A DNA stretch of 64,000 bases from Escherichia phage fEgEco12 (PP777464.1); one strand, 5' to 3'. Shown: positions 30,833 to 54,251, numbered from the stretch's first letter. A program made the numbers and translations. The notes: a model not told the origin generated them from the letters alone.

Positions 30833-31942
30833 TTATTTTGGTAAATCAATTTTAGCAAAGACTGCAACATCTGCACTTGCACCTGGAATGGCGTAATACG
30901 ATCCAGTACTATATACATTCCCGTCTTTGGTTAATAATGATGTTAATCCGTCACTAAAAGCAACATCACTAATCTCACTAACTTCTACAGGTAATTGTAA
31001 ATTAGCAGCACTATAGATAGCACCCGTTTGAGAATTGTTTAATCCCAAACCACGGTTTCCCCCAATACCTTTCTGATATGCACTAGTTAATATAATTTGC
31101 GTAGCCGTGCTTGTTGCCTCTGAATTTGTCATAAACAAAGGTGAATTATTAGGTAAAGTACTTACAGGAACTGCTTTGAATGTAGTTGAATCTGAACTAA
31201 GAAAGTTTGGAGTTGTACCACATGTGAAATATGATGTACCATTATAGTAATTGAGTGTATGTCCACCAATAGCTGCATCTATTACACCAGAACTACGCAG
31301 TCCCCAAATGTTAACTTGTGTTCTGTTCCCTGTGCCATGTAATCCACGGTCATTCCACCCTGAACTATATAACTTATTATCTATGCTAATATACATACTA
31401 TCATTAGGAGTAGACATAACTTTACGCACATTAGAAGCACATAGTGTTAATGTATATATTGATGAAGAACCAATCCCCAATACACCACGGTATCCATTAG
31501 CCCCAGCACCATAGAGTACTGAACTTGAACTGAGTACAAATATTACACCACCATTGCATACAATATTAGCAATTTGATTCACAGGAATTGTATTTGTAAA
31601 CCACTCCGTTCTATCAACTAATGTAGTACTGTAAGAAGTTGTTGTTGATGATGTGAACCAATATGTTTCACCTGATGTCCATATCGTATTGTCATTTTTA
31701 ATAATAACAAGTGTTCGTCCTCCAGTGAAAAAATTAGAAACATCTGCACTTACTAATGTCCAAGAAGATACCGTGTTTTTATTACCATTTCCAGATTCAC
31801 CACCTTGATTTCTGCCTATGTAATATAATTCATGTGAATCAGTCAATACGAATTGACCTTGTGTAGAAGCACCAACTTTTATTATATTTTTAGGACCAGG
31901 TGTAATATTCCCATAATCAAATAGTCTTACAAAAGGTAACAT
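30833..31942 (-). CDS. RCC1-like repeat protein, array member 10
   Basis: start at MLPF Met; 8-nt gap with GGAGGAAT RBS, co-transcribed with member 11. Confidence 0.75.
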   Translation of the reverse strand: MLPFVRLFDYGNITPGPKNIIKVGASTQGQFVLTDSHELYYIGRNQGGESGNGNKNTVSSWTLVSADVSNFFTGGRTLVIIKNDNTIWTSGETYWFTSSTTTSYSTTLVDRTEWFTNTIPVNQIANIVCNGGVIFVLSSSSVLYGAGANGYRGVLGIGSSSIYTLTLCASNVRKVMSTPNDSMYISIDNKLYSSGWNDRGLHGTGNRTQVNIWGLRSSGVIDAAIGGHTLNYYNGTSYFTCGTTPNFLSSDSTTFKAVPVSTLPNNSPLFMTNSEATSTATQIILTSAYQKGIGGNRGLGLNNSQTGAIYSAANLQLPVEVSEISDVAFSDGLTSLLTKDGNVYSTGSYYAIPGASADVAVFAKIDLPK

Positions 31943-31950
31943 AATTCCTC

Positions 31951-33144
31951 CTATTGTTGCCATAACTGCGTTGGCATTAATGTTAATGTTTTAATTAAGT
32001 AAGTACCATCCGGTAATTTACTACCTGAACCGTTAAAGCCCCCACATGCATATAATTTATAATCTTTAGTTATAATTATTGTTCTGGACCAGTCTTTGGA
32101 TGCCATAAGAACATTGTCATATCCACCCTGTATCGCACTTAAAGAAAACGCCCCCCACGAAGTAATTATTGTTGTATTTCCCGTCCCTTCTTGACCATAT
32201 GTATTGATGCCTGCACTCCTGACATATGATGGGTATTGAGCCATAGGTGCACCAATTGTTGAGTTACCCATATTACTAGGACACAGGAAACCATCACTAA
32301 TATTCACTATAACCTGTGAATTCTGAACTGTAGTTAATTGGTTTGTAGTTGAAGTAGTACCATTCCCAGCTTGTCCAGAATTGTTTCTACCACTCCAGTA
32401 CACCCTACCGGCAGTAAACCACCAGGTAACATCATAAGTAGTACTTATATAATCGACGTTGGTTCGTATTAATTTATTAGTAAAAACGTATGAGCTAGTC
32501 CCACCACCACTTTCACCAAAGTTATCCTTACCACAAAACCATGCTTCTTTATTTGTTTTGAGATAGTGCGTACCCTGTAATGAACACGCCAATTGAGAAA
32601 CTTCACCCATACCAGTAACAACTGTTAGTACTGGAATGGGATTTTGGTTACCTGTTCCACATTCGGCATTTGCATTTTTACCACAAACAACGACTCTTCC
32701 ATCGTGTAGTAATATTCTAGTACTTTCACCTATATGTACACTCTTGATTAAATTAGCGTGTATATTTATTTTGTTAAATGCGGCAGTAACATCAGTCCAT
32801 GTTCTAAAATAACCATTAACTGGAGTTGCATCTCCATAATCGGGGAATGCTACTGTATTCCCTGTGAAATATATTCTATTATCCAAGTCAATCATCAATG
32901 ATCCATGAACGCCTAACCAAAAGGCTGCACAGTGCGTTGCCAGTACTGTAAAAGTTGAAACTGCCGATTGATTCCCTAGACCTAATTGGCTCAAGTTATT
33001 ACCACCATAACCGTATAGTGTATTCGTGGGCTTATGTAGATACATAGCATTAGTATAATGTTGCTGTAAAACATCAGTGAACTCAACTGGTTCAGGAATA
33101 GGCAGTTTATTCCCGTACTTAACCATTCTTGCAAAAGGTAACAT
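31951..33144 (-). CDS. RCC1-like repeat protein, array member 11
   Basis: GGNNLSQLGLG, GRNNSGQAGNG motifs; start at MLPF Met (alternative 33159). Confidence 0.7.
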   Translation of the reverse strand: MLPFARMVKYGNKLPIPEPVEFTDVLQQHYTNAMYLHKPTNTLYGYGGNNLSQLGLGNQSAVSTFTVLATHCAAFWLGVHGSLMIDLDNRIYFTGNTVAFPDYGDATPVNGYFRTWTDVTAAFNKINIHANLIKSVHIGESTRILLHDGRVVVCGKNANAECGTGNQNPIPVLTVVTGMGEVSQLACSLQGTHYLKTNKEAWFCGKDNFGESGGGTSSYVFTNKLIRTNVDYISTTYDVTWWFTAGRVYWSGRNNSGQAGNGTTSTTNQLTTVQNSQVIVNISDGFLCPSNMGNSTIGAPMAQYPSYVRSAGINTYGQEGTGNTTIITSWGAFSLSAIQGGYDNVLMASKDWSRTIIITKDYKLYACGGFNGSGSKLPDGTYLIKTLTLMPTQLWQQ

Positions 33145-33159
33145 AACTAAAATCTCCAT

Positions 33160-33219
33160 ATAATAATTATAATGTATTTACAAAAAAATACCAGTACGTA
33201 TTTCAGTACTGGTATAATG
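33160..33219 (-). promoter_or_regulatory. variant array cassette (hairpin ACCAGTAC..GTACTGGT, TATAAT, GGAG)
   Basis: diverged cassette. Confidence 0.5.
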
Positions 33220-34401
33220 TTATGGTAAAATAATAGCTTGTAACGAACTCATACCCAATGTTGGAACACTCGCCTGTGGTGCTGGTGCATTCACTTTTGG
33301 TGATGAAACCGCATATGTCATTCCTGAACCCAAATCTGGATCAAAAACTACAGCACAATAATTCCCACTATATATAAGTCCATTCTTGTATCCTTGTGCA
33401 CTTTGAATGCATTTCGTGAACGTCCCAATATCTGTAGTGGCATTTATTAAGTTCCTCCCACGATAACCGCAGGTGTATATGAAATTATCATCGCCTATGT
33501 ACATACTAGAATCCCCAGCAGAACTACATAGATACGACATATAAGCACGCATGTTTTTAGGAGCAACTGACAATGTACCAGCATAGAATTTATTATTCGA
33601 ACCCGAAATATCACCATCACCCAAAGCACCAAAACTCCCCCAACCAGTACCATAATATCTCTTATCACTCAAGAATATAATACAGTTGTTATTACACATC
33701 TTGACTTGATATATCAATGAAGGATCAACCCCAGGGAATGATTCAGTGTATGTTAGAACAGCCAGATCAGTACTAGCATTACATTGATGATATGTATTAG
33801 TACCAGAGGACAATATTGTACCATCAACTAATAGAATCCTCGAAGTGCCAGTACCAGCAGTACAAGCAACTGCACTTCCTGCACTTCCGGTGTATATTTG
33901 TCTGAAAGTAAAGAAACCAACAGTCTTACTCCCTTGTCCACTCCAACCAGTATTATCAACACCACACGCCCATACTGAACCATCTTCCATGATCATCATT
34001 ACACCATAACGTTCTATTGAAATATAAACAATCTTTTTAGTATCAACTGCACTAAATCTAGAAGTTATATCCGTCCAAACCTTTACACTTACCGCCGTCG
34101 CACTGGAAGTAGGATCTTCACCTGCTATCATTATCCTACCATTGTTAGTCAGATACATTGTCTGACTATAACCAGTACTACAAAACTTAACACTATCAGT
34201 CTCTGGAACTTTTAACCACTCGTTGTAACGTGTTACGTTAGTGTTATTACCTAACTGATAATAGTTATTCATCCCAGATACATATAACACACCATCCTTT
34301 ATTAAACTATAAGTCGCACTATAGTCACTACAGGTATAACGTGTACCCACAGGTGGCTCAACGACGTTCCCATAATCAAACATTCTAACAAAAGGTAACA
34401 T
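33220..34401 (-). CDS. RCC1-like repeat protein, array member 12
   Basis: GMNNYYQLGNNTN motif; leader. Confidence 0.75.
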   Translation of the reverse strand: MLPFVRMFDYGNVVEPPVGTRYTCSDYSATYSLIKDGVLYVSGMNNYYQLGNNTNVTRYNEWLKVPETDSVKFCSTGYSQTMYLTNNGRIMIAGEDPTSSATAVSVKVWTDITSRFSAVDTKKIVYISIERYGVMMIMEDGSVWACGVDNTGWSGQGSKTVGFFTFRQIYTGSAGSAVACTAGTGTSRILLVDGTILSSGTNTYHQCNASTDLAVLTYTESFPGVDPSLIYQVKMCNNNCIIFLSDKRYYGTGWGSFGALGDGDISGSNNKFYAGTLSVAPKNMRAYMSYLCSSAGDSSMYIGDDNFIYTCGYRGRNLINATTDIGTFTKCIQSAQGYKNGLIYSGNYCAVVFDPDLGSGMTYAVSSPKVNAPAPQASVPTLGMSSLQAIILP

Positions 34402-34474
34402 AATAAAATCTCCGTAATTAAATTATATAGTATTTACAAAAAATACCAGTACATATTTCAGTACTGACCTATTA
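34402..34474 (-). promoter_or_regulatory. variant array cassette
   Basis: hairpin + TATAAT + GGAG. Confidence 0.5.
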
Positions 34475-35596
34475 TTAAAAGGGCAACGGTAACTCAGTAA
34501 AAGTACTTACGTCCGGTAAACCATACATTGAATTAGCATCACCACAGTAATACCACTTCGTAGAATCATGTACCACCGATAAACGCTGTGCACATAACAC
34601 TTCCTGTATGTCATTAAACACCATCGGGACTAACTCATATGTATCCGCAAATGAAGATACACCACCACTCGCATGAAAAGTATTCGTCCCAGCATAAAAT
34701 AACTGATTAGTGTTCTTACCCACAGCAAATGTCATCAATATCCCATCATTCTCCCATAAAGAAGAAAACTTATCAACACTACCAGAAAGCTCTGTGTAAG
34801 TACTCGTAATGGCACTCGCAGCCGCCGCATTACCCATCTGTTTATTCAAGTTCTGTCCAGCAATAAAATATCTCGTTCGTGCACTAGAATCAGTATATAA
34901 TAACCCAGTGTTCGTAGTCATCATACCAATGTCCTTAATCGTCATACCAGTCTGTGAATAACTTAGATACGAAGTTAAATTAACATTATTACCCAACGAA
35001 CCGTTATCACTCATGCCACAACGATGTAATATACCACTTGTATCAACGTAGATTGTACTAACTAAACTCGTATACAACTCTTGTACATTATTCGCAATAA
35101 ACACAGCAGTCGCCTTATTACTAACCCCACCAAATGATAGGTTATTATCAAATCCCTTAGCGTATAATTGATTATTAGTAGTCAATAATCCAATCGTGAA
35201 ATAAGACATTTTCATATCCCTTACTGTACTCAAATCTACTGCCCCAAATTGGTGCGTAACATCTGTCCATGTGAAAATCTGTGCACTACCAACACCACCC
35301 GTTTCAAACCATTTGTCACCACAGTACAATATGCGATTACCCTTAGTAAAGATAACTGTTACCAATCCACTACCACACGCAAACTTTACATCACTTCTAA
35401 CCTTCGTCCAATCAAGTACATAGGTAGTGGTGTTATTACCTATACCTAACTTGCCATAACGGTTATAACCACGCACCCACAAATCACCACTCTTAGTAAT
35501 TAATAGTAATGCGTCTCCTGTACTTATTATTCGAAATCCCGAACTAGGATCAGGTACTTCATTTCCATAATCAAACATTCTAACAAAAGGTAACAT
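34475..35596 (-). CDS. RCC1-like repeat protein, array member 13
   Basis: GYNRYGKLGIGNNTT motif. Confidence 0.75.
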   Translation of the reverse strand: MLPFVRMFDYGNEVPDPSSGFRIISTGDALLLITKSGDLWVRGYNRYGKLGIGNNTTTYVLDWTKVRSDVKFACGSGLVTVIFTKGNRILYCGDKWFETGGVGSAQIFTWTDVTHQFGAVDLSTVRDMKMSYFTIGLLTTNNQLYAKGFDNNLSFGGVSNKATAVFIANNVQELYTSLVSTIYVDTSGILHRCGMSDNGSLGNNVNLTSYLSYSQTGMTIKDIGMMTTNTGLLYTDSSARTRYFIAGQNLNKQMGNAAAASAITSTYTELSGSVDKFSSLWENDGILMTFAVGKNTNQLFYAGTNTFHASGGVSSFADTYELVPMVFNDIQEVLCAQRLSVVHDSTKWYYCGDANSMYGLPDVSTFTELPLPF

Positions 35597-35668
35597 ATTT
35601 CCCTCCTTTATTCATTATAATATATTTAATACAAAAAAGAAAAGCCAGTACAGAGTACTGGCATAGTA
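35597..35668 (-). promoter_or_regulatory. array cassette
   Basis: conserved cassette. Confidence 0.6.
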
Positions 35669-36778
35669 TTACTTGGGTAATGGAATTGTAGTCCATCTAT
35701 TAGCGGCAACGCCCCCTGGTACATATGTAGGACTACCACTTACAGCAATAGTTTCATTACCATCATACACAACACTGAAGTTTGTGCACGTATACAACGA
35801 GGCGGTATCTGGATTGTAATTTATAAGTGTTAATGTATTGGTGAACAAATTCAATGCAGTAGTTGACCCGTTTTTACCAAACGAACCTGTCGTATATATC
35901 TTTCCTTCTGTTGTTGAGTACATGTTAACATATGACCCAGATGATGATTTGGCAATTTTATCTATCTTGCTATCTATCGTTTTAGAGTTAAATTGAAATG
36001 GATATACCTGTACGTTAGTATCTAAACCATTTCCTAGTTCCCCATTTAACTGCCACCCTGAGTGGTACATTCCCGAATTTGTATATGCAAGCGTACTATA
36101 CCCATTACCACCCATTATTTTAGTGCCAGATAATTTTAAACCAAACGATGTCCACTTACCAGTTTCATTTCCTATAGAACCATAAGCACTTGTCCCACAT
36201 GCTCGAAGCTCACCATTCGATGTTAGAAGCACTGTATTATTAACGTTACCAAATATATCAATAACCTGATTAGTTCCATTATTCAGTACTGAAGTGAAAG
36301 TACTCTGTGAGTAAGTACTACCTGAACCAACAGAACCATTTGTGTTCATACCTCTTCCATATACAGTTGTACCATCAGCACTAACATAGTGCATTGAATC
36401 AAAACCAATGGATATCATTTTAATATTAGAGATATCTGGGAATGAAGAAGTTACATCTACTCCACCTAATGGAATTGTAGTATTTCCTAAACCTAATGAG
36501 ACATTAGTTCCGTGCATTATAAATTTATCTTCTTTCAAATATAAAATATTGTATCCACCAGCCCATGCATTACTAACACCATTGGTAATTAGTACCCAAT
36601 TATTTTGTGTAGCAGTTCCATCAATATTTAACTGTTGATAGTTATTGATTCCACAACCATATAGCGAACCATCACCATATAGTACATATAAATTATCATA
36701 TCCTGCTATAACTTTCTTTATTTTTTTCGGTACTGGTGCAATATTCCCGTACTTAACCATTCTTACAAAAGGTAACAT
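35669..36778 (-). CDS. RCC1-like repeat protein, array member 14 (close paralog of member 5)
   Basis: start at MLPF Met. Confidence 0.75.
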   Translation of the reverse strand: MLPFVRMVKYGNIAPVPKKIKKVIAGYDNLYVLYGDGSLYGCGINNYQQLNIDGTATQNNWVLITNGVSNAWAGGYNILYLKEDKFIMHGTNVSLGLGNTTIPLGGVDVTSSFPDISNIKMISIGFDSMHYVSADGTTVYGRGMNTNGSVGSGSTYSQSTFTSVLNNGTNQVIDIFGNVNNTVLLTSNGELRACGTSAYGSIGNETGKWTSFGLKLSGTKIMGGNGYSTLAYTNSGMYHSGWQLNGELGNGLDTNVQVYPFQFNSKTIDSKIDKIAKSSSGSYVNMYSTTEGKIYTTGSFGKNGSTTALNLFTNTLTLINYNPDTASLYTCTNFSVVYDGNETIAVSGSPTYVPGGVAANRWTTIPLPK

Positions 36779-36850
36779 ATTTCCTCCTTTATTCATTATA
36801 CTATATTTAATACAAAAAGAAAAGCCAGTATCAAGTACTGGCATATTAAA
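36779..36850 (-). promoter_or_regulatory. array cassette
   Basis: conserved cassette. Confidence 0.6.
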
Positions 36851-37999
36851 TCACTGCCAAAATGACATATCAACTTCTGTGAAATTAAGCACGCTCTGCG
36901 TAGAAAGACCACCCATTGCTACCATCGCAATTCCACAATAATATAACTTCCCTTTGTCATTGAGTAACAATGTCCCAGATGGTGTTGTTACTAAATTGCA
37001 CGAAGTATTAAAAGAAGTATATGAAGGAGTATAGTAGTACTGATTAATGGTATTACCTACACCTAATTTTCCATACCCATTTTCTCCAGATGCGTAAAGT
37101 ACTTCATCACCTTTAGCAATATGTGATGCCATGTTACTAACACACGTGTATACAGCTCTAACTCCTGTACTCAATAATGTAGGAGTCTTGTATTGGATAT
37201 CAGTACTAGTAGATGTCCCACCTGTACCAAATTCATTACCGTATTGTGCACCGTATTGTTTACCACAAGCGTACAAATTATTATCCGATTTGATAAAAAA
37301 TGTACTCTGATAACTTACATTAAAATCTATAACATCCGAAGAAATCATCGTCACCCCAGTAATAGAAGTTTGATTACCCGTGCCCAACTGGTAGTAATAG
37401 TTAAAACCACAACCCCATAAAGTATTATCTTCTCGCAAATAAATGTTACCAACTGCCTTTTTAACCGAAGTTATAGTATCTACTCTTTTGAATGTGTTAA
37501 AAGAATTAATGTTTGTGCCATCACCAAATGATGATATGTTCGATATATTGTTAGTTCCACAACAATACAATGTACCATCGTTTGTTATCAAATTCACCTT
37601 CATATCATAAAAACTACTCATGTATTTTATATCAGAAACATTAATACCACTTGATGTTATCCACGTAGTACAGTCCGTCCACAAAGTTTTTCTATCAGTT
37701 ACACCAGTGAATGCCTTCGTGTTACCAGTGATAAAAACTTTTCCAGTACCTTTCTCTTCATACAATTGACAATCACTACTGTTATCTTCCAATAGAACTC
37801 GTTTAACATTCTCCGCACAAAGAATAAATTTACTCGATGCTACACCTGTACCAGTACCCCAATTCGTCGCAGAAGATGCATACAACTTGTCAGTATAAGT
37901 ATCATGAAGATACATAGAATCACTGGAATATATTTTATAACGACCAGAGTTGGTAGGAGCTTCATTCCCATAATCAAACATTCTAACAAAAGGTAACAT
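36851..37999 (-). CDS. RCC1-like repeat protein, array member 15
   Basis: GFNYYYQLGTGNQ, GENGYGKLGVGNT motifs; start at MLPF Met. Confidence 0.75.
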   Translation of the reverse strand: MLPFVRMFDYGNEAPTNSGRYKIYSSDSMYLHDTYTDKLYASSATNWGTGTGVASSKFILCAENVKRVLLEDNSSDCQLYEEKGTGKVFITGNTKAFTGVTDRKTLWTDCTTWITSSGINVSDIKYMSSFYDMKVNLITNDGTLYCCGTNNISNISSFGDGTNINSFNTFKRVDTITSVKKAVGNIYLREDNTLWGCGFNYYYQLGTGNQTSITGVTMISSDVIDFNVSYQSTFFIKSDNNLYACGKQYGAQYGNEFGTGGTSTSTDIQYKTPTLLSTGVRAVYTCVSNMASHIAKGDEVLYASGENGYGKLGVGNTINQYYYTPSYTSFNTSCNLVTTPSGTLLLNDKGKLYYCGIAMVAMGGLSTQSVLNFTEVDMSFWQ

Positions 38000-38047
38000 A
38001 TTTCCTCCTTTATTCATTATATCATATTTACCCCAAAAAGAAAACCC
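38000..38047 (-). promoter_or_regulatory. promoter/RBS cassette of array member 15
   Basis: same cassette sequence. Confidence 0.5.
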
Positions 38048-38094
38048 TTGACAACCTTTCAGTACTGGTGTACTATAGAAGGAATATAAGGAGA
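38048..38094 (+). promoter_or_regulatory. promoter of tiny-protein array (TTGACA-17-TACTAT, RBS AAGGAG)
   Basis: TTGACA 38048-38053, TACTAT 38071-38076. Confidence 0.6.
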
Positions 38095-38101
38095 ACTGTA
38101 C

Positions 38102-38329
38102 ATGACAACTACACTTAAGTACTACATTAATACTCTAACTGAACTAGAGTACGCGAAGTTTCTCGCGGATAGTTCGTGGCTAATTGAGCTAAAAACACAT
38201 AACAGTACTGGATGTAACCTTATGCTGAACAATGCACTTGATACCCTTGTAGTGAGTATTTTACACAGCAACATCTGCGGGAATAGCAATAAACAATTAT
38301 CAAAAATCTTAGTACTGGTAGCTCTATGA
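38102..38329 (+). CDS. tiny-protein family member (75 aa)
   Basis: first gene after promoter. Confidence 0.5.
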   Translation: MTTTLKYYINTLTELEYAKFLADSSWLIELKTHNSTGCNLMLNNALDTLVVSILHSNICGNSNKQLSKILVLVAL

Positions 38330-38538
38330 ACACTATGAACATTGAACAGTACTACATCGATGCACTACCAACAAAAGGTCTACGAGAAAGCCTACTGTAT
38401 ACACAAAATAATTATATAAACTTCAAACATTGTCCTAAACTCTTGAACTCGTACAGGAATAATAAAATAAGAAATGCTGTACAAGGGGTAGAAAGTATGC
38501 AATACTATTACATCCTAACCCTTTTAATCGAGCACTAA
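38326..38538 (+). CDS. tiny-protein family member (70 aa)
   Basis: ATGA overlap. Confidence 0.5.
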   Translation: MNTMNIEQYYIDALPTKGLRESLLYTQNNYINFKHCPKLLNSYRNNKIRNAVQGVESMQYYYILTLLIEH

Positions 38539-38539
38539 T

Positions 38540-38725
38540 ATGTATAAAGAATTCTACTGTAGTAAGCTGCACAAACAATACAGAGATTCATTTCCCAATG
38601 AACCTATGGATATGAATAGTCCCTTTTATAAATTTGACTTCAGACTGGAGACACGTTATGCAATAGAACATCAATTTCCTGAAACTAAGTACTTATCTAT
38701 CATGAACCTCATCTTTAAGTTCTAA
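38540..38725 (+). CDS. tiny-protein family member (61 aa, MYKEFY..)
   Basis: tandem paralog. Confidence 0.5.
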   Translation: MYKEFYCSKLHKQYRDSFPNEPMDMNSPFYKFDFRLETRYAIEHQFPETKYLSIMNLIFKF

Positions 38726-38736
38726 AAGAGTACTAT

Positions 38737-38949
38737 ATGAAAACTATGAACATACACCAGTACTACTTAGATATTCTCCCTAAAGATGTACAGTTCATCC
38801 TTAAACAAGAATACAGTACTTTAAAAAACCTTAAAAGAACCGCACCGAATGTATTAATCCTGCACCAAGAAAATGTAGTTGATAATATTCTACAAGGTGT
38901 ACCAGGGACCGAGTACTTTAACATAATAAGGCTAATTACATTACCATGA
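38737..38949 (+). CDS. tiny-protein family member (70 aa)
   Basis: tandem paralog. Confidence 0.5.
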   Translation: MKTMNIHQYYLDILPKDVQFILKQEYSTLKNLKRTAPNVLILHQENVVDNILQGVPGTEYFNIIRLITLP

Positions 38950-39131
38950 ATCATATATTATACTATTACCTAAATCTATCCGACAGGGACAAGTACACCC
39001 ACAACTCCAATGTATGGTACTACAAACGCGGTAGTATAAGAGACAAACAACATTACTTCTGTATTGCTATAAAAGAAGCACTAACAACTAAGTACACGTA
39101 CAGAGCAGTACTGAAACTTATTGATATGTAA
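38946..39131 (+). CDS. tiny-protein family member (61 aa, ..YRAVLKLIDM)
   Basis: tandem paralog. Confidence 0.5.
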   Translation: MNHILYYYLNLSDRDKYTHNSNVWYYKRGSIRDKQHYFCIAIKEALTTKYTYRAVLKLIDM

Positions 39132-39141
39132 AGAGAATACT

Positions 39142-39324
39142 ATGAGCATTGAATTGTACTTAAGTAAATTACAGCCTGGCGATAGATTCATCTACAATAA
39201 GTTCGAATTCAACTACAAGAACGGGAGCAACAAATATCGTCGAGGATACCTATATACAAGCACAAGAGATGCACAAAACGAAAAGTACACATACAGAGAA
39301 GTACTTAAACTAATCTCTATTTGA
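39142..39324 (+). CDS. tiny-protein family member (60 aa, ..YREVLKLISI)
   Basis: ATG start; track start 39121 is TTG. Confidence 0.5.
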   Translation: MSIELYLSKLQPGDRFIYNKFEFNYKNGSNKYRRGYLYTSTRDAQNEKYTYREVLKLISI

Positions 39325-39332
39325 GGTAATAT

Positions 39333-39518
39333 ATGAATACATTTGAGTACTATACAAATAAACTATCTATGCCTGAAAGATCTCATCTCTATGTGTGGAG
39401 AAATGCGTATAAAAGCGGCAATAAACTTATACAAAGAAATTCCCTTACAGTGTGTACAAATTTAATTAAAGCAGAGTACCGCACATATATTGAAGTACTC
39501 AAACTGATAGCAATATAA
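39333..39518 (+). CDS. tiny-protein family member (61 aa)
   Basis: tandem paralog. Confidence 0.5.
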   Translation: MNTFEYYTNKLSMPERSHLYVWRNAYKSGNKLIQRNSLTVCTNLIKAEYRTYIEVLKLIAI

Positions 39519-39526
39519 GGTACTCT

Positions 39527-39706
39527 ATGCAAGAATTCTATATCTATAACCTCCAGCACAAAGATAGATACAACTATAATAAATTCCAAAGGTACTACAC
39601 AGTCGGGAACAAAAGAGATAAAAAACGATACCTACTATCATGTACAGTAGAAGCACAAAACGAAAAGTACACGTACAGAGAAGTACTTAAACTAATCTTA
39701 ATCTAA
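39527..39706 (+). CDS. tiny-protein family member (59 aa, ..YREVLKLILI)
   Basis: below track cutoff; ATG ORF with family C-terminus. Confidence 0.45.
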   Translation: MQEFYIYNLQHKDRYNYNKFQRYYTVGNKRDKKRYLLSCTVEAQNEKYTYREVLKLILI

Positions 39707-39713
39707 GGTAGAC

Positions 39714-39902
39714 ATGAACACTTTTGAGTACTACTTCAATAAACTAAACCACATAGAACAAAGTATGCACAACTCATTTATTCAGCACCATCAATCATCT
39801 GCACATGGAATTAAAAATATATCGATTGAGATTATCACTACCCGTGTACTGTCATCTGAACGTTATATGTATATTGATGTACTGAAACTCATCTCTATGT
39901 AA
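39714..39902 (+). CDS. tiny-protein family member (62 aa)
   Basis: tandem paralog. Confidence 0.5.
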   Translation: MNTFEYYFNKLNHIEQSMHNSFIQHHQSSAHGIKNISIEIITTRVLSSERYMYIDVLKLISM

Positions 39903-39910
39903 GGAATAAT

Positions 39911-40090
39911 ATGCAAGAATACTATATAGAACACATAAGCATTAAAGACCGTTTCATGTACGACACCTTCGTGAAGTACTACAACCTGGCAACTAATAGT
40001 ACTAAAAATATTAATCTCAATAGCTGCATTCATCACGCACTAACAAAAGATAATCCCTTCAGGGAAATCCTCGCTCTCGCATCTGTATAA
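39911..40090 (+). CDS. tiny-protein family member (59 aa, MQEYYI..)
   Basis: below track cutoff. Confidence 0.4.
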   Translation: MQEYYIEHISIKDRFMYDTFVKYYNLATNSTKNINLNSCIHHALTKDNPFREILALASV

Positions 40091-40100
40091 AGGAAACCAA

Positions 40101-40760
40101 ATGAAACTTAATGCACACAGCAAACAATACCTTAAGCACTTTAAATACCTCAACAGTATTCAAGCAGAATCTTTTACACCAGCATATACTTACGACCCGT
40201 GTGTACTAAAGAAACGAAATAAAAAGAAAAAATCCAGAAATGTTCTCGTATCTAAGAACCTCAAATCGTACTTGAAGAAAAATAATATAGCTCTTGCTTT
40301 TATTAATATCTATAATACTGATTTAAAAGTATTGAGTACTAATACCAGCACAAAAGCACTAAAGAATGCATCTATCTATATACACATGGATAATATCCCG
40401 TGCACTATAATTCTATCTTTCGGGAATGTATACTTCTTCGGGAATTGTAATAGCACCCATGATATCAGTACTGCACAATTCCAAATCGGCGATATGTACT
40501 GCATGGGTTCAGAAAAAATACACGATAACATGCACTTCTTCCAAAAGCAACGTACTAACGAAACTGATACAGTACTGCAATTCCTCAAAGAACTAGAACA
40601 CAAAGAATTATCCGAGGAAGAAGAATTCATGTACAGTACTGTAATCGATAATCCAGGACTCTATAAAAACGCGTACAAACTAACAAAACATGTACAGGAA
40701 CTTATCAGTACTGATAAGAAATTTCATCACCTCATTACGTATATTTCAAACTATGTATAA
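40101..40760 (+). CDS. hypothetical protein (219 aa) inside the tiny-protein array
   Basis: ATG with AGGAAA RBS. Confidence 0.55.
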   Translation: MKLNAHSKQYLKHFKYLNSIQAESFTPAYTYDPCVLKKRNKKKKSRNVLVSKNLKSYLKKNNIALAFINIYNTDLKVLSTNTSTKALKNASIYIHMDNIPCTIILSFGNVYFFGNCNSTHDISTAQFQIGDMYCMGSEKIHDNMHFFQKQRTNETDTVLQFLKELEHKELSEEEEFMYSTVIDNPGLYKNAYKLTKHVQELISTDKKFHHLITYISNYV

Positions 40761-40926
40761 AGAATTCTACCTCTCGTACCTTAATTCCGATATAGTAACA
40801 TCCAATACATTCAGTACTAAAATTATCTATAATGAAGTAATGAAAGAATGTATTAAAGGTGCTATTAACCCTAAAGATACGTATGACTTGTACTATGCAG
40901 TACTAACCCTTGTTTTCACGAAATAA
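40753..40926 (+). CDS. tiny-protein family member (57 aa, MYKEFYLSYL..)
   Basis: in-frame ATG; track start 40690 overlaps upstream gene. Confidence 0.45.
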   Translation: MYKEFYLSYLNSDIVTSNTFSTKIIYNEVMKECIKGAINPKDTYDLYYAVLTLVFTK

Positions 40927-40934
40927 CACATAAT

Positions 40935-41126
40935 ATGAATAACCACAAAGAATACTACATAGAGAAACTCCCAATGTATCTCCAACACCTTCTACCAACA
41001 GAACCATTGGGTATAGAAAAAAACTACGAAAAAGACTACTTCATTCAGTGCACTAAATCCTCGATATATATTGAAGACTATAATCGAGTACTGTATCACA
41101 TCCTTTTACTAATATATAGGTACTAA
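40935..41126 (+). CDS. tiny-protein family member (63 aa, MNNHKEYY..LLIYRY)
   Basis: tandem paralog. Confidence 0.5.
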   Translation: MNNHKEYYIEKLPMYLQHLLPTEPLGIEKNYEKDYFIQCTKSSIYIEDYNRVLYHILLLIYRY

Positions 41127-41127
41127 T

Positions 41128-41310
41128 ATGCACAAAGAATACTACACACAATTTCTCCCCAGTATATTTGAACACTACGCCAGATATAAAGTCCCCCTGG
41201 ATAACGATTTGGCAGTACTGGGATTCAATAATTGCATAGAACGCAGTATAGAAAATAGTAGTAGCTATGACCAATTATATAACACTATCCTACTTATATT
41301 CAGGTACTAA
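41128..41310 (+). CDS. tiny-protein family member (60 aa)
   Basis: tandem paralog. Confidence 0.5.
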   Translation: MHKEYYTQFLPSIFEHYARYKVPLDNDLAVLGFNNCIERSIENSSSYDQLYNTILLIFRY

Positions 41311-41311
41311 T

Positions 41312-41500
41312 ATGCATAAAGAATACTACACAAAATATTTCCCAATGTACCTCAGTACTAATCTATTAGATAAACCTCGCGGTATCAATGCACAAAACGA
41401 TAAAGTGTACTTTACTATGTGCACTAAAGCATGTATACTAGATTTTGATAGCTATCATCGAGTACTGTATCATACCCTGTACCTAGCTTTCGTGTACTAA
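41312..41500 (+). CDS. tiny-protein family member (62 aa, MHKEYYTKYF..)
   Basis: in-frame ATG after upstream stop. Confidence 0.5.
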   Translation: MHKEYYTKYFPMYLSTNLLDKPRGINAQNDKVYFTMCTKACILDFDSYHRVLYHTLYLAFVY

Positions 41501-41510
41501 AGAGGCCAAT

Positions 41511-41717
41511 ATGAACGAACAGAAAGAATTTTACACCAAACACCTCAGTGCATCAGAACAAATGTTTCTAAGGAGTGTATCACCTTTACGTTTAGATACA
41601 CCACACGCCAGAGATTGCTTTAATAATTGTATACGTATTACTCTAGAAGCTTTAGAAAACAATAACAAAAATATTCAGTACTCAGGCGTAATGGGACTAA
41701 TATTTTTCTATGAATAA
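41511..41717 (+). CDS. tiny-protein family member (68 aa, MNEQKEFYTKHLS..)
   Basis: near-duplicate of 42094. Confidence 0.5.
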   Translation: MNEQKEFYTKHLSASEQMFLRSVSPLRLDTPHARDCFNNCIRITLEALENNNKNIQYSGVMGLIFFYE

Positions 41718-41901
41718 TTACAAAGAATTCTACTTAAGCCATCTCGATCTAAACTCCCAAATGCTTATACCACTAAACCCAATAGATATCAAGGATAAGA
41801 AAAATACCAAACAATTCCACTACCACACACTATGTGCTATCAACCCAGATTATAATACATATAAACTGTACTACATTCTCGCCCTAATATATAGGTACTG
41901 A
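41710..41901 (+). CDS. tiny-protein family member (63 aa)
   Basis: tandem paralog. Confidence 0.5.
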   Translation: MNNYKEFYLSHLDLNSQMLIPLNPIDIKDKKNTKQFHYHTLCAINPDYNTYKLYYILALIYRY

Positions 41902-41902
41902 T

Positions 41903-42088
41903 ATGCATAGAGAATACTATATACAATTTGTTAAAGGGAACTACAAACACGCCGTCCCCGTAAACCCCTTAAATTCTAATGACCCAAGTACTATATTCTT
42001 GTTCCATGACGCAATACGTACAGTACTCAATACTAAAGATGAACAGGTGCAGTACGTATTCTTACTATTACTTATATACAGACACTAA
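41903..42088 (+). CDS. tiny-protein family member (61 aa)
   Basis: tandem paralog. Confidence 0.5.
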   Translation: MHREYYIQFVKGNYKHAVPVNPLNSNDPSTIFLFHDAIRTVLNTKDEQVQYVFLLLLIYRH

Positions 42089-42093
42089 CTAAT

Positions 42094-42303
42094 ATGAATA
42101 AAGAACATAAAGAATTCTATTCCAAACACCTCAGCCCCACAGAACAAATGTTTCTAAGGACTACAGCACCTTTAAGTACTGATACTTATTTCGGCAGAGT
42201 ATGCTACAATAATTGTATTCAAATGACTTTAAACGCAAACGACAATAATAACAGTACTAATATGTACTCCGGCATCATAGGTATACTATTTCTATATGAA
42301 TAA
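42094..42303 (+). CDS. tiny-protein family member (69 aa)
   Basis: near-duplicate of 41511. Confidence 0.5.
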   Translation: MNKEHKEFYSKHLSPTEQMFLRTTAPLSTDTYFGRVCYNNCIQMTLNANDNNNSTNMYSGIIGILFLYE

Positions 42304-42487
42304 AGAACATAAAGAGTACTATATAAGTAAACTCAAAGAGAATGAACAAGCATGGGTTAACAATTTAATCCCCCTGGCAATGACTCAATACGAATTTAAT
42401 ATGTGTACAAAGATTGTTTTAACTACTAATGATATCTCTAATACGTACTACTTCCTATTAAGAGTACTATATGGTACTTTGAAATAA
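42296..42487 (+). CDS. tiny-protein family member (63 aa)
   Basis: tandem paralog. Confidence 0.5.
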   Translation: MNKEHKEYYISKLKENEQAWVNNLIPLAMTQYEFNMCTKIVLTTNDISNTYYFLLRVLYGTLK

Positions 42488-42498
42488 TAAGGTATACT

Positions 42499-42705
42499 AT
42501 GCAGAACATAAAAAACTATAAAGAGTACTATATAAGTAAACTACCACCGACTGACCAAGCATGGATTAGATCTATAATAGTACTGGCATTTAATAGATAT
42601 GCATTTAACAGATGTACCGAGATTGCTATAGACCCTTATAATATTAAAGAGAATGTACAGCATAATCAGTACTACTATATGTTAATGCTTATATATAGGA
42701 AGTAA
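42499..42705 (+). CDS. tiny-protein family member (68 aa)
   Basis: last array member. Confidence 0.5.
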   Translation: MQNIKNYKEYYISKLPPTDQAWIRSIIVLAFNRYAFNRCTEIAIDPYNIKENVQHNQYYYMLMLIYRK

Positions 42706-43372
42706 TTCAACATATAGACAGGGGAAGCTCCGCAGGGAAAGCATTGGACAGGCTTTAACAATTAGAAGAATTGTTAAAATTCAGCCTGGACAAATGCGAT
42801 CACTAGGATTCTCCCCAGGCTAAACCCCGTAATCATATGTAGTCATAAGTAATCATATATAAACATTTATATGAGCACCGTAGAATCACAGAATGATTAT
42901 ATATGATTCAGTACTGATTATTATAGACAAGATTACTCAAGAATGCTAGGGAAGGATTCAGTACTGCCCTAAAAGTATTCAGTACTGAAGGTGGCGATAT
43001 CCCACTAAGTAGGCAGAGGAAGTCTGCCGTACTTTGTAGTTTCCAAGCTCCTTTTCCATTTTGCAAATTACATCAAATGTAATCAAAAGTAATCACGCAA
43101 TGATTAGTACTGAATTATTACTTTCACCTTAATTACAATTACCCTTTTACCCTTCGGGGTAAAATTCCATTACCCCTTGAGGCTCCAGCAAAAAGTTGGT
43201 TAGTACTCCATCCTAAATCTCGATCCTAAAAATTTTGGAGTACCTATGAAATAAAAGTTGGATCTTCGAAAGTTGAAATTTACGTTGGGACGTTTATGAT
43301 TTGTGGGATATAATGATGTTTGTAATCGGGTAGTTCTCAAGAATATCAGTACTGAAAGATGAAAGAAAGTTA

Positions 43373-43400
43373 TTGACTTTATGATTCAGTACTGTATAAT
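43373..43400 (+). promoter_or_regulatory. orphan sigma70-like promoter (TTGACT-16-TATAAT) with no ORF downstream
   Basis: TTGACT 43373-43378, TATAAT 43395-43400. Confidence 0.45.
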
Positions 43401-43584
43401 GTTCTACATAGGGTGATGAGTTGCTGCGAACAATTCATTTACTCTACCTCCTGTCGTGAGACAGTACAGAAAAGATAGTTCCTCCTGTGGTGGTACATCT
43501 TTTTGAACCTCATATGAAAATCGTAATAACAGTACTGATATTAACAGAATGGTGTCAGTACTGATTTTAATCTAAAGCATTATG

Positions 43585-43604
43585 CCACCAGCTTGTGCTG
43601 GTGG
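43585..43604 (+). other. hairpin CCACCAGC(TTGT)GCTGGTGG containing a Chi octamer
   Basis: perfect 8-bp inverted repeat; GCTGGTGG at 43597-43604. Confidence 0.5.
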
Positions 43605-43740
43605 ATTCCCTCTAACAGTATTCAGTACTACATGATGGTCTTCATCCTCCTAGGGTAACATAGTGAGGGCTATGATGGCAGTACTGAATACTCCCTTTCA
43701 AAAGATAGATCTATGGTATAGTACTGACGGATTTTGGGTG

Positions 43741-43920
43741 TAGTTACCCTGGATGGATTTTGGGCGTAGATATGTCTAGCCCTCCAGAAGTCTGGAAGTA
43801 AAGATGGCTATCCATCTAGACGGCTAAACGGCTAGATTTCTGGATGGCTGGATGGCTGGATGGCTAGACGTTTGGACGGCTAAACGGCTAGATGGTTACA
43901 CGTCTGGAAGTATAGACGGC
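43741..43920. repeat. iteron-like repeat cluster (3x tandem TGGATGGC; 2x 19-bp GACGGCTAAACGGCTAGAT; 2x GTCTGGAAGTA) followed by AT-rich stretch
   Basis: direct repeats read from sequence; no ORF. Confidence 0.6.
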
Positions 43921-44551
43921 TAAATCAAAATTTTATTTTGTTTTTTCCAATAGTTCCCCTACCGCGTGGGGATAGTTTCCCCGCAGTATCTGGTGTTAGA
44001 TTTTTCTGAATCTGGAATCATTATCTTATAAACTGGGGGCAATGTCAACGGCCTGGACGGATATTTTTAAAAATTTTTTCAGTACTGAATTTTGGGCGTA
44101 ACTATGCACCCGGTGGGCTTGAGTCTTTCTCGACTTGATGGAACTATTATACAGTACTGAAAAAATAAAGCAATACCCTGGAAGCAAAAAAGTTTTAATT
44201 AATTTGCTTGCTATCCTGGGCCGGACTATGGTACTATATTTCAGTACTGAGAAAGTGCGTTTACCTGCTAGGGTGCGGGAGTGTATCCTTTTTTTATATC
44301 TTGAATTTTGGACGGATCTTCCCACCCCCTGGGGTATCCGCTTTCTCGCGTCTATGTAGTAATTATACGCTTTTTCAGGATCAAGTCAATACCTAAAAAC
44401 AAAATAATTGAAAATAATTTAACGCGTTTAAACGGCCTGTAAAGCCCTGGAATGATTGGAATGGTGCAAATGTATAGCTTATGTGTATTAATGCGTTAGA
44501 ATGCGTCTGAGGACGTTTTACGGGGTATAGGGATGATTTAGTGGATTGATT

Positions 44552-44638
44552 CAGTACTGAATAATAGTACTCCTATATAGAAAGATAGTTCCCCTGGATG
44601 ATTGCAGTACTGAATAATAGTACTCCTATATAGAAAGA
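44552..44638. repeat. 34-bp direct repeat CAGTACTGAATAATAGTACTCCTATATAGAAAGA x2 (period 53)
   Basis: copies at 44552-44585 and 44605-44638. Confidence 0.65.
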
Positions 44639-44666
44639 AAACTATTTTAAAAGTATTTGTAGAAAG

Positions 44667-44729
44667 TACTTGCACCGTACTGATAAAAGCGTATAATGTT
44701 TTACATCGAGAGCGGGAACACTTCCCGCT
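44667..44729 (+). promoter_or_regulatory. promoter + leader stem-loop module
   Basis: TTGCAC 44670-44675, TATAAT 44692-44697, hairpin AGCGGGAACACTTCCCGCT. Confidence 0.65.
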
Positions 44730-47250: not shown

Positions 47251-47415
47251 ATGAATACTTTTACCTTCGCTCAATTGAACGCCCTGGATGTATTGTCTGA
47301 TGCTTTGCGGGATGCAACTGAAAGCGGTTTATTTGACAATGTTGACATTCACCCTGATGTAATTAATAATTTTTGTGATGCTATCGCAGAAGTACTGGAA
47401 GATCTAAAAAAATAA
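47251..47415 (+). CDS. hypothetical small acidic protein (54 aa)
   Basis: ATG after module with GAGGAA RBS; below track cutoff. Confidence 0.45.
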   Translation: MNTFTFAQLNALDVLSDALRDATESGLFDNVDIHPDVINNFCDAIAEVLEDLKK

Positions 47416-47421
47416 TAGAAA

Positions 47422-47485
47422 GTACTTGCAATTAGTTTTCAGTACTGTATAATGGTTTACATCAAAGGGAGAAATGGTTCTCCCT
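47422..47485 (+). promoter_or_regulatory. promoter + leader stem-loop module
   Basis: TTGCAA 47426-47431, TATAAT 47448-47453, hairpin GGGAGAAATGGTTCTCCC. Confidence 0.65.
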
Positions 47486-47503
47486 GGTAATGAGGAAAAT
47501 ACA

Positions 47504-47725
47504 ATGGCTAATATCACTACTCTTTCCCAACTGGAAGCACTGGTTAAATCTATGCGGGAACATGCTGACAAAATCGGCGTACAAGATCCAGCCGTTTGCT
47601 TCTGCGACGAATTGAATGATGATACCCTGGTAATAGCAGAAGTCCAGGACGTTTCTAACTATTCCTCGCGTTACACTGGCGGCGTAGCAAATAAAGGTGA
47701 CTTCTGTTTATACCTTACAAAATAA
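47504..47725 (+). CDS. hypothetical protein (73 aa)
   Basis: ATG after GAGGAAA RBS. Confidence 0.5.
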   Translation: MANITTLSQLEALVKSMREHADKIGVQDPAVCFCDELNDDTLVIAEVQDVSNYSSRYTGGVANKGDFCLYLTK

Positions 47726-47728
47726 CAA

Positions 47729-47760
47729 CGCGGGGAGATAATAACTCCCCGTTACTTTTT
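47729..47760 (+). terminator. intrinsic terminator hairpin CGGGGAG..CTCCCCG + T-run
   Basis: 7-bp stem then TTACTTTTT. Confidence 0.6.
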
Positions 47761-47839
47761 CAGTACTGAATCATTTAATAGACGGATCTCGGCACCCGGT
47801 GGGTTAGTGACAGTTTCGTCTTGATGTAATAATTATGCC

Positions 47840-47876
47840 AGTACTGGATGCACTTGTCAACAACTATTTTTTCAAA
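47840..47876 (-). promoter_or_regulatory. orphan minus-strand promoter (TTGACA-17-CATAAT) reading into the 3' end of gene 47504
   Basis: reverse complement gives TTGACAAGTGCATCCAGTACTGGCATAAT; leader carries the TAACCCACCGGGTGC motif. Confidence 0.45.
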
Positions 47877-47890
47877 TACTTTTTATTAAA

Positions 47891-47950
47891 ATACTTGCAA
47901 TTAGTTTTTAAACGCGTATAATGTTTTGCATAGGGGGAGCGGTTCCCCTG
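47891..47950 (+). promoter_or_regulatory. promoter + leader stem-loop module
   Basis: TTGCAA 47895-47900, TATAAT 47917-47922, hairpin GGGGAGCGGTTCCCC. Confidence 0.65.
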
Positions 47951-47969
47951 GTAACTAAGGAATAAGAAA

Positions 47970-48206
47970 ATGCTTGAACAAATCAAATCAACGTCTGCGA
48001 ATGTAACGGGAACGGTAGTACACTTTACTAGTGATGAATCGCGGGGTGTACCCTATTGTGCTGTACATGTAAACACTGAGGGTAACTACTGGTTTACGGT
48101 TTACGGATCATATTCATTTGGACGGCCTGGGCATCAAAAAATTCTGGATAAAGTACAACCAACGGGTAAAAATATCACGGCTGAAATGTTTTATAAAAAA
48201 TCATAA
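47970..48206 (+). CDS. hypothetical protein (78 aa)
   Basis: ATG after AAGGAA RBS. Confidence 0.55.
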   Translation: MLEQIKSTSANVTGTVVHFTSDESRGVPYCAVHVNTEGNYWFTVYGSYSFGRPGHQKILDKVQPTGKNITAEMFYKKS

Positions 48207-48271
48207 AGTACTTGATAATAGTTTTTAGTACTGTATAATATTTTACATCGCAAGGGGGAGCGGTTCCCCCT
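48207..48271 (+). promoter_or_regulatory. promoter + leader stem-loop module
   Basis: CTTGAT -35, TATAAT 48234-48239, hairpin GGGGGAGCGGTTCCCCC. Confidence 0.6.
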
Positions 48272-48290
48272 GGTAACTAAGGATAATCAA

Positions 48291-48590
48291 ATGAAAATTG
48301 CAATCATCGCCCTGGCTTTATCTGTTTCCTCTTTCGCTGTTAATGCGTCATTAGATGTAAGTAGTGAAAAATTCATTCAGTGCACTGTTGCAATGACCGA
48401 TGAAAGAACTGGCGAGATTGTATTAAAGGATTTAGAGATCCAGCCGGAAGCATTTAAAAACGGCCCGTTCCATGAAGAAGACGAAAACGGTAGCACAACA
48501 ATTTATTATGATGCCAGTACTAAACGCGGTTCGGTCACTGTTATGGATACCGAGAAAGTAACTCATACCGGCGTTATTAATTGCCGTTGA
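48291..48590 (+). CDS. putative secreted protein (99 aa)
   Basis: signal-like N-term MKIAIIALALSVSSFAVNA. Confidence 0.55.
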   Translation: MKIAIIALALSVSSFAVNASLDVSSEKFIQCTVAMTDERTGEIVLKDLEIQPEAFKNGPFHEEDENGSTTIYYDASTKRGSVTVMDTEKVTHTGVINCR

Positions 48591-48611
48591 TAGATACTAC
48601 GGGGTAACATC

Positions 48612-48842
48612 ATGACTAAGCGAATTGTTTTACTTAACGAAAGCAGTACTACACAACTACTTAACGCCGTGCATTATGATATTGAAACGAGCGTTAATCT
48701 TATCAGTACTGTAGTTCTGTTGGACACTGGAAAGGTAGCCAATGATAAAGCGATTGCAGGTATACTAACGGATCTTGTGCCTGGTAGCAGTGCACCAATA
48801 ACGTTAAATGGTAAAGTGTTTAATATTTTACTCACTGATTAA
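48612..48842 (+). CDS. hypothetical protein (76 aa)
   Basis: ATG ORF. Confidence 0.5.
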   Translation: MTKRIVLLNESSTTQLLNAVHYDIETSVNLISTVVLLDTGKVANDKAIAGILTDLVPGSSAPITLNGKVFNILLTD

Positions 48843-48847
48843 GTACA

Positions 48848-48870
48848 TAGCCCACCTGGTGGGCTTTTTT
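48848..48870 (+). terminator. intrinsic terminator AGCCCACC/TGGTGGGCT + T6
   Basis: hairpin + TTTTTTG. Confidence 0.7.
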
Positions 48871-48924
48871 GTTTTTGTAGTATCGTAGTACTGAGATACT
48901 TTGAAAATAGTTTTAAAAAAGTAG

Positions 48925-48952
48925 TTGACATTACCACAGAAAAGCGTAGAAT
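48925..48952 (+). promoter_or_regulatory. promoter TTGACA-16-TAGAAT with long structured leader
   Basis: TTGACA 48925-48930; about 120-nt leader resembling the 46398 element. Confidence 0.5.
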
Positions 48953-49075
48953 GTATTACATCAAGACGGGGAGCACTAAGTAGACCGCCAGTAAGTCGAA
49001 CGAAAAACTGGACACGTCGAGAAAACTTTGATACACTAATAAACGTAAACTAAACTTTAATTGAGGATTTATAAA

Positions 49076-54250: not shown

Positions 54251-54251
54251 C

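Follow-up and report, generated by a model that had tools for sequence, protein, structure and literature searches.

We analysed a 64,000-nucleotide stretch of the genome of Escherichia phage fEgEco12 (PP777464.1; hereafter the window), focusing on an array of small genes on its plus strand at positions 38102–42705. Nineteen of the 20 small open reading frames (ORFs) of this array, lying head to tail, form a true paralogous family whose similarity exceeds the noise of base composition and codon bias. Its members are proteins of about 60 residues predicted to adopt a four-helix fold, one conserved promoter-like site lies upstream of them, and their content varies between phages. We tentatively propose, at somewhat less than even confidence, that this genus-specific family is an early set of diversified binders or inhibitors of variable host targets, acting in anti-defence or host take-over, or of competing phages, a function that we infer from the features laid out below.

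The original prediction, made from the window alone, had described a shared pattern at the amino and carboxy termini of these proteins and had named AT-rich codon bias as the explanation that could undo it. Profile tests were run against this explanation. In a leave-one-out test, the 996 ORFs of the AT-rich window were all scored with a hidden Markov model (HMM) built from the other window members, and each of s02–s20 (19 of the 20 small ORFs, numbered in order along the operon; Table 1) was recovered with E-values of 4e-4 to 1e-15; the top non-family ORF gave E-values of 0.005–0.19. Based on this recovery and on the conserved alignment columns, with tyrosine Y8 as an invariant position, the conserved positions are real and the family is not codon-bias noise. 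The terminal pattern thus stands for s02–s20. It could not be demonstrated for s01, which yielded a leave-one-out E-value of 8.8 and an hhalign probability of 3%, confined to its amino-terminal 15 amino acids (aa). Orthologues of s01 are 83–99% identical in the protein database, with 77% identity to phage 121Q and 64% to phage A4.

An all-versus-all phmmer comparison resolved two blocks, s05–s10 (subfamily A) with the carboxy terminus VLKLISI, and s03 together with s11–s20 (subfamily B) with the carboxy terminus LIYRY; the pair s02/s04 was joined to s20. The two subfamilies are connected in hhalign with an E-value of 2e-4 and a probability of 45%, which is moderate taken alone. Pairwise identities within the family have a median of 24%, and the genes at 41511 and 42094 (s15 and s18), previously taken for near-duplicates, share only 58% protein and 72% DNA identity. 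The entry phrog_11711 (unknown function) was matched by 11 of the 20 ORFs with a best E-value of 6.9e-28; the HMM derived from the window connects the other family members. Scanning the 20 proteins against Pfam, NCBIfam and PADLOC gave scattered single matches above E 0.002 only and nothing consistent. No additional member was detected elsewhere in the window with the family HMM; a minus-strand ORF at 44396–44572, in the non-coding gap, reached ~11 bits, matched the EYY..L start only and has no start codon, and was rejected as a chance match.

The 219-aa protein encoded within the array was considered as a family member carrying an insertion and rejected on its scores, with an E-value of 14 for the full-length HMM, 6.8 bits for its carboxy-terminal 70 aa and an hhalign probability of 0.1%. 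It matches phrog_29152 (unknown function); its homologues were found in this genus only, none with a Pfam domain, and its AlphaFold model was unusable, with a predicted local distance difference test score (pLDDT) of 37.

The AlphaFold2 model of s12, calculated from a family alignment of 35 sequences, reached a pLDDT of 91 and a predicted template modelling score of 0.75, with four predicted helices comprising residues 4–9, 14–17, 30–45 and 49–62. A Foldseek comparison of this model with the PDB gave E-values above 7 and no solved-structure analogue, the BFVD fold search returned the family itself only, and the family sequence profile searched against the PDB gave nothing below E 0.8. Judged by this model, the family appears to have its own fold, and no recognisable DNA-binding fold or domain, helix-turn-helix or other, was found in it. 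The small proteins are soluble in character, with a negative grand average of hydropathy except for s01, no transmembrane character and 10.4% tyrosine. Subfamily A is basic, with isoelectric points (pI) of 9.4–9.6 and net charges of +4.5 to +5.6 in four of its six members; subfamily B is near neutral or acidic.

We derived positional entropies from an alignment of 94 unique members of seven phages. Low entropy was obtained for columns E6, Y/F7, Y8, L12, F36, C39, T/I40, A43, L/I44, Y/L53, I/V56, L57, L59 and I60, with Y8 invariant among all 94; they lie on one face of each helix and, spaced i, i+3/4, i+7, make up the hydrophobic faces of the two long helices. Entropies of more than 3 bits were obtained at positions 14–15, 18–35, 45–52, 55, 58 and 62. 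Mapped onto the predicted structure, this profile describes a conserved core with hypervariable loop and helix surfaces.

A megablast search of positions 38000–42800 against phage records placed the window in an Asteriusvirus jumbo coliphage, with 99.1% identity over the full length to phage WPEC5; coverage was 64–100% across 35 E. coli and Salmonella jumbo phages, among them PBECO4, 121Q, phAPEC6, slurp01 and Sharanji. The genus was assigned from the taxonomy lines of the matching records, and all genes beneath the match carry the label 'hypothetical protein'. An exhaustive hmmsearch of 1.84 billion representative proteins returned 33 clusters, all of 59–69 aa and in this genus only, and a word-indexed search with the family profile returned 42. 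By tblastn the family is present in 34 phage records, every one an E. coli or Salmonella jumbo phage, and a metagenome contig with a distant member shows the same architecture. The layout is common to every Asteriusvirus examined: an array of RCC1-like genes on one strand, a divergent region of ~100 nucleotides (nt), the s01 orthologue, A-type members, a protein of ~220 aa, B-type members and ~2 kb without ORFs. The originally described position of the small genes, beside a propeller array and divergently transcribed from it, is the same in all of these phages.

Within this constant layout, copy number and content change. We counted 19 copies in the window, in WPEC5 and in slurp01, 17 in phAPEC6, 16 in A4, 15 in 121Q, and 14 each in Salmonella SD-15 and JNE01. 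At a threshold of 62% identity, the 114 members of seven phages fall into 43 orthogroups, none of which is common to all seven, and JNE01 shares no orthogroup at all. Both flanks, namely the promoter and the 2-kb stretch of non-coding DNA, show far stronger conservation than the array genes. Tandem paralogues whose number and content vary from strain to strain are what is expected of a conflict-driven multigene family.

The raw ORF list of the array contains 20 consecutive plus-strand ORFs of 57–78 aa plus one of 219 aa, bearing out the originally reported gene count, and the remaining five frames hold short overlapping ORFs only. In three ORFs the raw start lies too early; the ATG codons at 39142, 40753 and 41312 give back the family amino terminus, in agreement with the WPEC5 annotation, and the corrected lengths are 57–75 aa. 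With these starts the intergenic gaps are −8, −4, +1 and +5 to +11 nt, confirming the tight packing, and five array genes overlap the preceding stop codon. Reading the upstream sequences by eye, we located an AGG-containing motif 5–13 nt upstream of ~13 of the 21 genes. Within subfamily B, a gene's ribosome-binding site often lies inside the conserved carboxy-terminal codons of the gene before it (...AGG TAC TAA T ATG).

The single promoter placed upstream of the array in the original prediction corresponds to a promoter-like site (38048–38076), which is nearly invariant in WPEC5, 121Q, A4 and JNE01. No intrinsic terminator was predicted inside the array, and internal promoter-like matches were not commoner than in shuffled sequences. 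The spacer of this site carries CAGTACTG, an extension of the palindrome AGTACT. The composite motif TTGAC-N6-10-CAGTACTG occurs at 10 sites in the window versus 0.02 expected, nine of them on the plus strand, and most take the form TTGACA-N8-CAGTACTG-TATAAT before small plus-strand genes at 43–63 kb. Directly after the last stop codon follows a structured element (42710–42840) with long invariant stretches across four phages, containing the long hairpin CAGGCTTTAACAATT...AATTGTTAAAATTCAGCCTG. It has no U-run and is therefore not a canonical intrinsic terminator; it may form the 3′ boundary of the transcript or stabilise it.

The authors of a study on the related phage CBB describe RpoD-like promoters grouped ahead of short hypothetical genes, which they suspect to be early host take-over genes, and late genes bearing a T4-like ATAAATA motif (PMC5259590). 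The T4-type late-promoter octamer TATAAATA occurs twice in our window versus 13.6 expected, neither copy near the array. By promoter type and by analogy with CBB, we infer early timing of the array. The two TATAAATA copies (7611–7618 and 8853–8860) each lie just upstream of a plus-strand gene, at 7651 and 8882, a pattern that fits a motif avoided save where functional. Between 46150 and 62700, units of the form (AAAGTACTTGCA / TTGACAAAGTATAT)-CAGTACTG-TATAATxGTTTACATCAAGGGGAGAA recur before many small plus-strand genes, and six similar minus-strand 'ORFs' at 47407–60410 are probably an artefact of repeated intergenic DNA.

Table 1 Features of the small-gene array and its boundaries, with positions counted along the window and E-values from the leave-one-out HMM test.
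Feature	Position	Strand	Size	Assignment and remarks	Leave-one-out E-value
Promoter-like site	38048–38076	+		TTGACA-N17-TACTAT with CAGTACTG in spacer, then AAGGAG ribosome-binding site of s01; 10/12 consensus matches	
s01	38102–38329	+	75 aa	First gene of operon; family membership not demonstrable	
s02	38326–38538	+	70 aa (67 aa if ATG 38335)	Divergent, paired with s04; phmmer ties to s04 and s20	2.7e-4
s03	38540–38725	+	61 aa	Subfamily B	1.5e-8
s04	38737–38949	+	70 aa (67 aa if ATG 38746)	Divergent, paired with s02	4.3e-4
s05	38946–39131	+	61 aa	Subfamily A; basic, pI 9.4	3.8e-7
s06	39142–39324	+	60 aa	Subfamily A; raw start TTG 39121, likely start ATG 39142	1.8e-9
s07	39333–39518	+	61 aa	Subfamily A	1.1e-10
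s08	39527–39706	+	59 aa	Subfamily A	8e-12
s09	39714–39902	+	62 aa	Subfamily A	7e-8
s10	39911–40090	+	59 aa	Subfamily A	5.5e-7
219-aa protein	40101–40760	+	219 aa	Within operon; unrelated to small family	
s11	40753–40926	+	57 aa	Subfamily B; start overlaps 219-aa gene by 8 nt	2.6e-7
s12	40935–41126	+	63 aa	Subfamily B; member modelled by AlphaFold	1e-15
s13	41128–41310	+	60 aa	Subfamily B	2.8e-8
s14	41312–41500	+	62 aa	Subfamily B; raw ORF start 41267	9e-7
s15	41511–41717	+	68 aa	Subfamily B; nearest paralogue s18 (58% aa identity)	3.6e-15
s16	41710–41901	+	63 aa	Subfamily B	3.6e-9
s17	41903–42088	+	61 aa	Subfamily B	4.5e-12
s18	42094–42303	+	69 aa	Subfamily B	3.9e-14
s19	42296–42487	+	63 aa	Subfamily B	5.3e-14
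s20	42499–42705	+	68 aa	Subfamily B; last gene of operon	5.2e-12
Structured element	42710–42840	+		Directly after last stop codon; −41.7 kcal/mol, z −4.06, 0/200 shuffles as stable	

An early, conflict-related repertoire is suggested by the combination of a sigma-70-type promoter, tight packing, a conserved core with variable surface, genus restriction, mosaicism, a moderate ratio of nonsynonymous to synonymous substitution rates (dN/dS) and absence of the annotated small proteins from virions. In such a scenario, the host sigma-70 RNA polymerase would read the promoter at 38048–38076 early, and the array would yield a single polycistronic message in the early phase of infection. Each paralogue would then bind a different partner through its variable surface, and the conflict with the host would keep the repertoire diverse. 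A sharper version, in which every paralogue, ~19 of them in each phage and at least 43 orthogroups genus-wide, would neutralise its own defence system or host factor of E. coli or Salmonella, we consider unlikely.

Several observations weigh against the proposal of a diversified repertoire. Searches of Pfam, NCBIfam and PADLOC as well as the fold searches revealed no similarity to known anti-defence or host take-over proteins. The pooled dN/dS is below 1, leaving positive selection unsupported. No phage among the seven carries two copies of one orthogroup, and together with the median identity of 24% this indicates that the paralogues are old and do not stem from a recent 'accordion' amplification. 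Furthermore, the 4.6-kb array contains 38 copies of AGTACT, 37 of them inside genes and spread over the codon phases 12/12/13, and its tyrosine codons TAC and TAT are used 82:50, opposite to the RCC1-like genes with 48:143. Due to this AGTACT excess and TAC bias, part of the sequence pattern of the array may serve a role at the DNA level.

The substitution rates bear on the idea that the array is largely dispensable ORFan material under weak constraint, or a region kept mainly for a DNA-level role, which we regard as quite unlikely. Pooled over orthologue pairs, dN/dS was 0.49 for 121Q, 0.39 for A4 and 0.37 for JNE01, and single genes ranged from 0 up to 1.1–1.6. Such relatively high values, with some genes above 1, would suit weak constraint, as would the mosaic presence and absence across phages; in the comparison with A4, AGTACT sites are moreover retained at 17 of 27 positions versus a background of 35% for other 6-mers. 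However, the pooled values are clearly below 1, and dN/dS is near 0 for several members, as exemplified by s13, whose protein is 100% identical to its 121Q orthologue with a dN of 0 at a dS of 0.28. In addition, JNE01 maintains the lengths and starts of the ORFs as well as the hydrophobic core even at 25–57% protein identity, and the promoter and ribosome-binding signals are conserved.

The neighbouring array comprises 15 minus-strand ORFs (19665–38017), RCC1-like by orthologue annotation, 14 of which cluster as one family in the window. About 10 of the 15 genes are preceded by a repeated cassette (e.g. 23850–23926 and 28320–28390), in which a terminator-like hairpin, GCCAGTAC-N4-TACTGGC, and its T-run come before ATTAAATATAGTATAATGAATAAAGGAGG and a conserved ATGTTACCTTTT start. 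The cassette includes ATTAAATATAGTATAAT and has no TTGACA-like −35 hexamer, where the small array has TTGACA-17-TACTAT instead. The original prediction had raised, as speculation, a functional link between both arrays, for example through partner, chaperone or immunity-like proteins. Spelled out further, the small proteins would be partners of the RCC1-like proteins, such as assembly chaperones, adaptors or immunity-like factors, with about one per propeller variant. In favour of this idea, the arrays lie side by side and diverge in all Asteriusvirus phages examined, and their sizes rise together in six of these phages, with RCC1-like genes to family members at 15/19, ~13/19, ~12/15, 11/17, 9/14 and ~9/14. 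The RCC1-like array sizes were read from ORF lists and annotation, as a single phmmer query undercounts divergent copies. This co-variation is loose and not 1:1, and the phages are related and not phylogenetically independent.

The distribution of the RCC1-like genes speaks against such a partnership. The Eneladusvirus Yersinia phage fHe-Yen9-04 carries an RCC1-like array of at least five copies whose divergent side consists of non-coding DNA followed by spaced genes and holds no small-gene array, and the searches found the small family in no phage outside Asteriusvirus. GAP32 and other phages have single RCC1-like genes without the small family, so that the co-occurrence expected of chaperones for fibre or virion proteins does not hold across these phages. 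Virion mass spectrometry of phAPEC6 detected gp003, 005, 006, 007, 009, 010, 549 and 551, all of them RCC1-like proteins or 40-kDa proteins encoded next to these, but none of gp540c–gp548c, which comprise the small genes annotated there and the homologue of the 219-aa protein. Since only 9 of the 17 family members are annotated in that genome this evidence is incomplete, yet size alone does not explain the missing small proteins because a 4.7-kDa protein was detected in the same virions. Moreover, the upstream signals differ and the RCC1-like genes have terminator and promoter cassettes of their own, whereas genes for phage fibre chaperones are usually found directly downstream of the client gene in the same late unit. 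Given RCC1-like arrays without the family, the virion data, the different cassettes and the non-1:1 counts, we assign the partner idea a low probability and consider it very unlikely.

AGTACT occurs 290 times in the window versus 21.6 expected from base composition, a 13-fold excess, and its extension CAGTACTG 73 times versus ~1 expected; GCGC is absent versus 70 expected. We found the same AGTACT/GCGC signature in 121Q, JNE01, slurp01, Salmonella SD-15 and the Eneladusvirus phage fHe-Yen9-04. The AGTACT density rises from ~3 per kb (1–38000) to 5–10 per kb (38001–64000) precisely at the beginning of the small array, which by this measure groups with the downstream region and not with the RCC1 block. 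The hairpin of the RCC1 cassette is made of the same GTAC half-sites, and four CAGTACTG copies at 40466–40713, in the 3′ half of the 219-aa gene, are spaced by 104, 64 and 72 bp.

The possibility that the small proteins target the nucleic acid of phage or host or the transcription machinery, as nucleoid-like or regulatory proteins possibly tied to AGTACT/CAGTACTG, is the slimmest of those named here: the basic character of four of the six subfamily A members (pI 9.4–9.6, net charge +4.5 to +5.6), the location of the array and the following region in the most AGTACT-dense parts of the window and the CAGTACTG in the array's own promoter are in line with it, but subfamily B is near neutral or acidic, the model is neither helix-turn-helix nor a known DNA-binding fold, 19 highly divergent paralogues are hard to square with one invariant motif, and the AGTACT signature is also found in a genus without the family. 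The remaining probability we assign to other, unnamed functions.

Downstream of the array, positions 42706–44695 form a 2-kb stretch without credible ORFs, with a mean column identity of 84% across four phages including JNE01. It contains 13 CAGTACTG copies, a TTGACT-N9-CAGTACTG-TATAAT promoter at 43373–43400, which belongs to the class of the array promoter, and, at 43816–43922, ~13 tandem 8-bp units (CTGGATGG/CTAAACGG), after which come an A/T run and several GC hairpins. An Rfam scan of 37–46 kb gave nothing credible, and the block could act as a replication origin or encode a non-coding RNA. The window is rich in gene duplication overall, with further groups of small plus-strand paralogues comprising three adjacent ORFs at 11851–12886 and dispersed triplets at 56078–63567 and 50564–57754.

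Most jumbo-phage genes have no known role, and tandem, fast-changing families of small proteins are among the most promising places to search for new inhibitors of bacterial immunity or core host machinery. The family offers a compact, confidently modelled scaffold with dozens of natural variants, from phages growing on laboratory E. coli. If these variants bind different targets, they would provide a map of the host systems important to a 350-kb phage and possible new protein inhibitors. Should each paralogue have its own target, no larger anti-defence or host take-over repertoire built from a single family would have been described in a phage, and the turnover of members across the genus would track host defence content. 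If the array is dispensable instead, it shows the ORFan load that a giant phage can carry. The AGTACT excess, the absence of GCGC and the conserved 2-kb non-coding block point to DNA-level biology; no description of it, or of the AGTACT/CAGTACTG motif, was found in the literature searched.

The genes themselves are already present in databases as hypothetical proteins (121Q gp250–265, WPEC5 CDS0073–0092) and in phrog_11711; no paper describing the family was found in the literature searched. The phrog_11711 entry covers the same proteins without function, family description, subfamily structure or comparative analysis, and nine window ORFs lie outside its model. Among known systems, phage anti-defence loci such as anti-CRISPR operons, Ocr/Ard and Tad/Gad-type inhibitors normally hold unrelated small proteins. 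The array resembles them in its small, fast-evolving, early-type, narrowly distributed and clustered proteins, but consists of 19 paralogues and has no match in PADLOC, in Pfam or to a solved anti-defence structure; no Aca-type helix-turn-helix or other associated regulator was seen in the operon.

Bacillus phage G carries ~35 zinc-ribbon copies as a lineage-specific expansion (Iyer et al. 2021, PMC7824862). Both cases represent a large paralogous expansion of a small domain restricted to one jumbo-phage lineage, whereas the family described here is all-helical, cysteine-poor and without a zinc-ribbon motif, and all its copies lie in one operon. With the early regions of T4-like and Rak2-like phages, for the latter as described for CBB (PMC5259590), the array shares short hypothetical genes, a sigma-70-like promoter and its location in a plastic part of the genome. 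The genes of those regions are mostly unrelated and often have their own promoters, in contrast to 19 paralogues behind one promoter.

Multigene families (MGF) with a known role in immune evasion are found in eukaryotic DNA viruses, namely MGF100, 110, 360 and 505 of African swine fever virus and the host-range families of poxviruses. These viruses infect another domain of life and their families have no sequence or fold relationship with the array family; as an analogy only, they share with it tandem divergent paralogues, gain and loss at the level of strains, and a conserved scaffold with variable surfaces.

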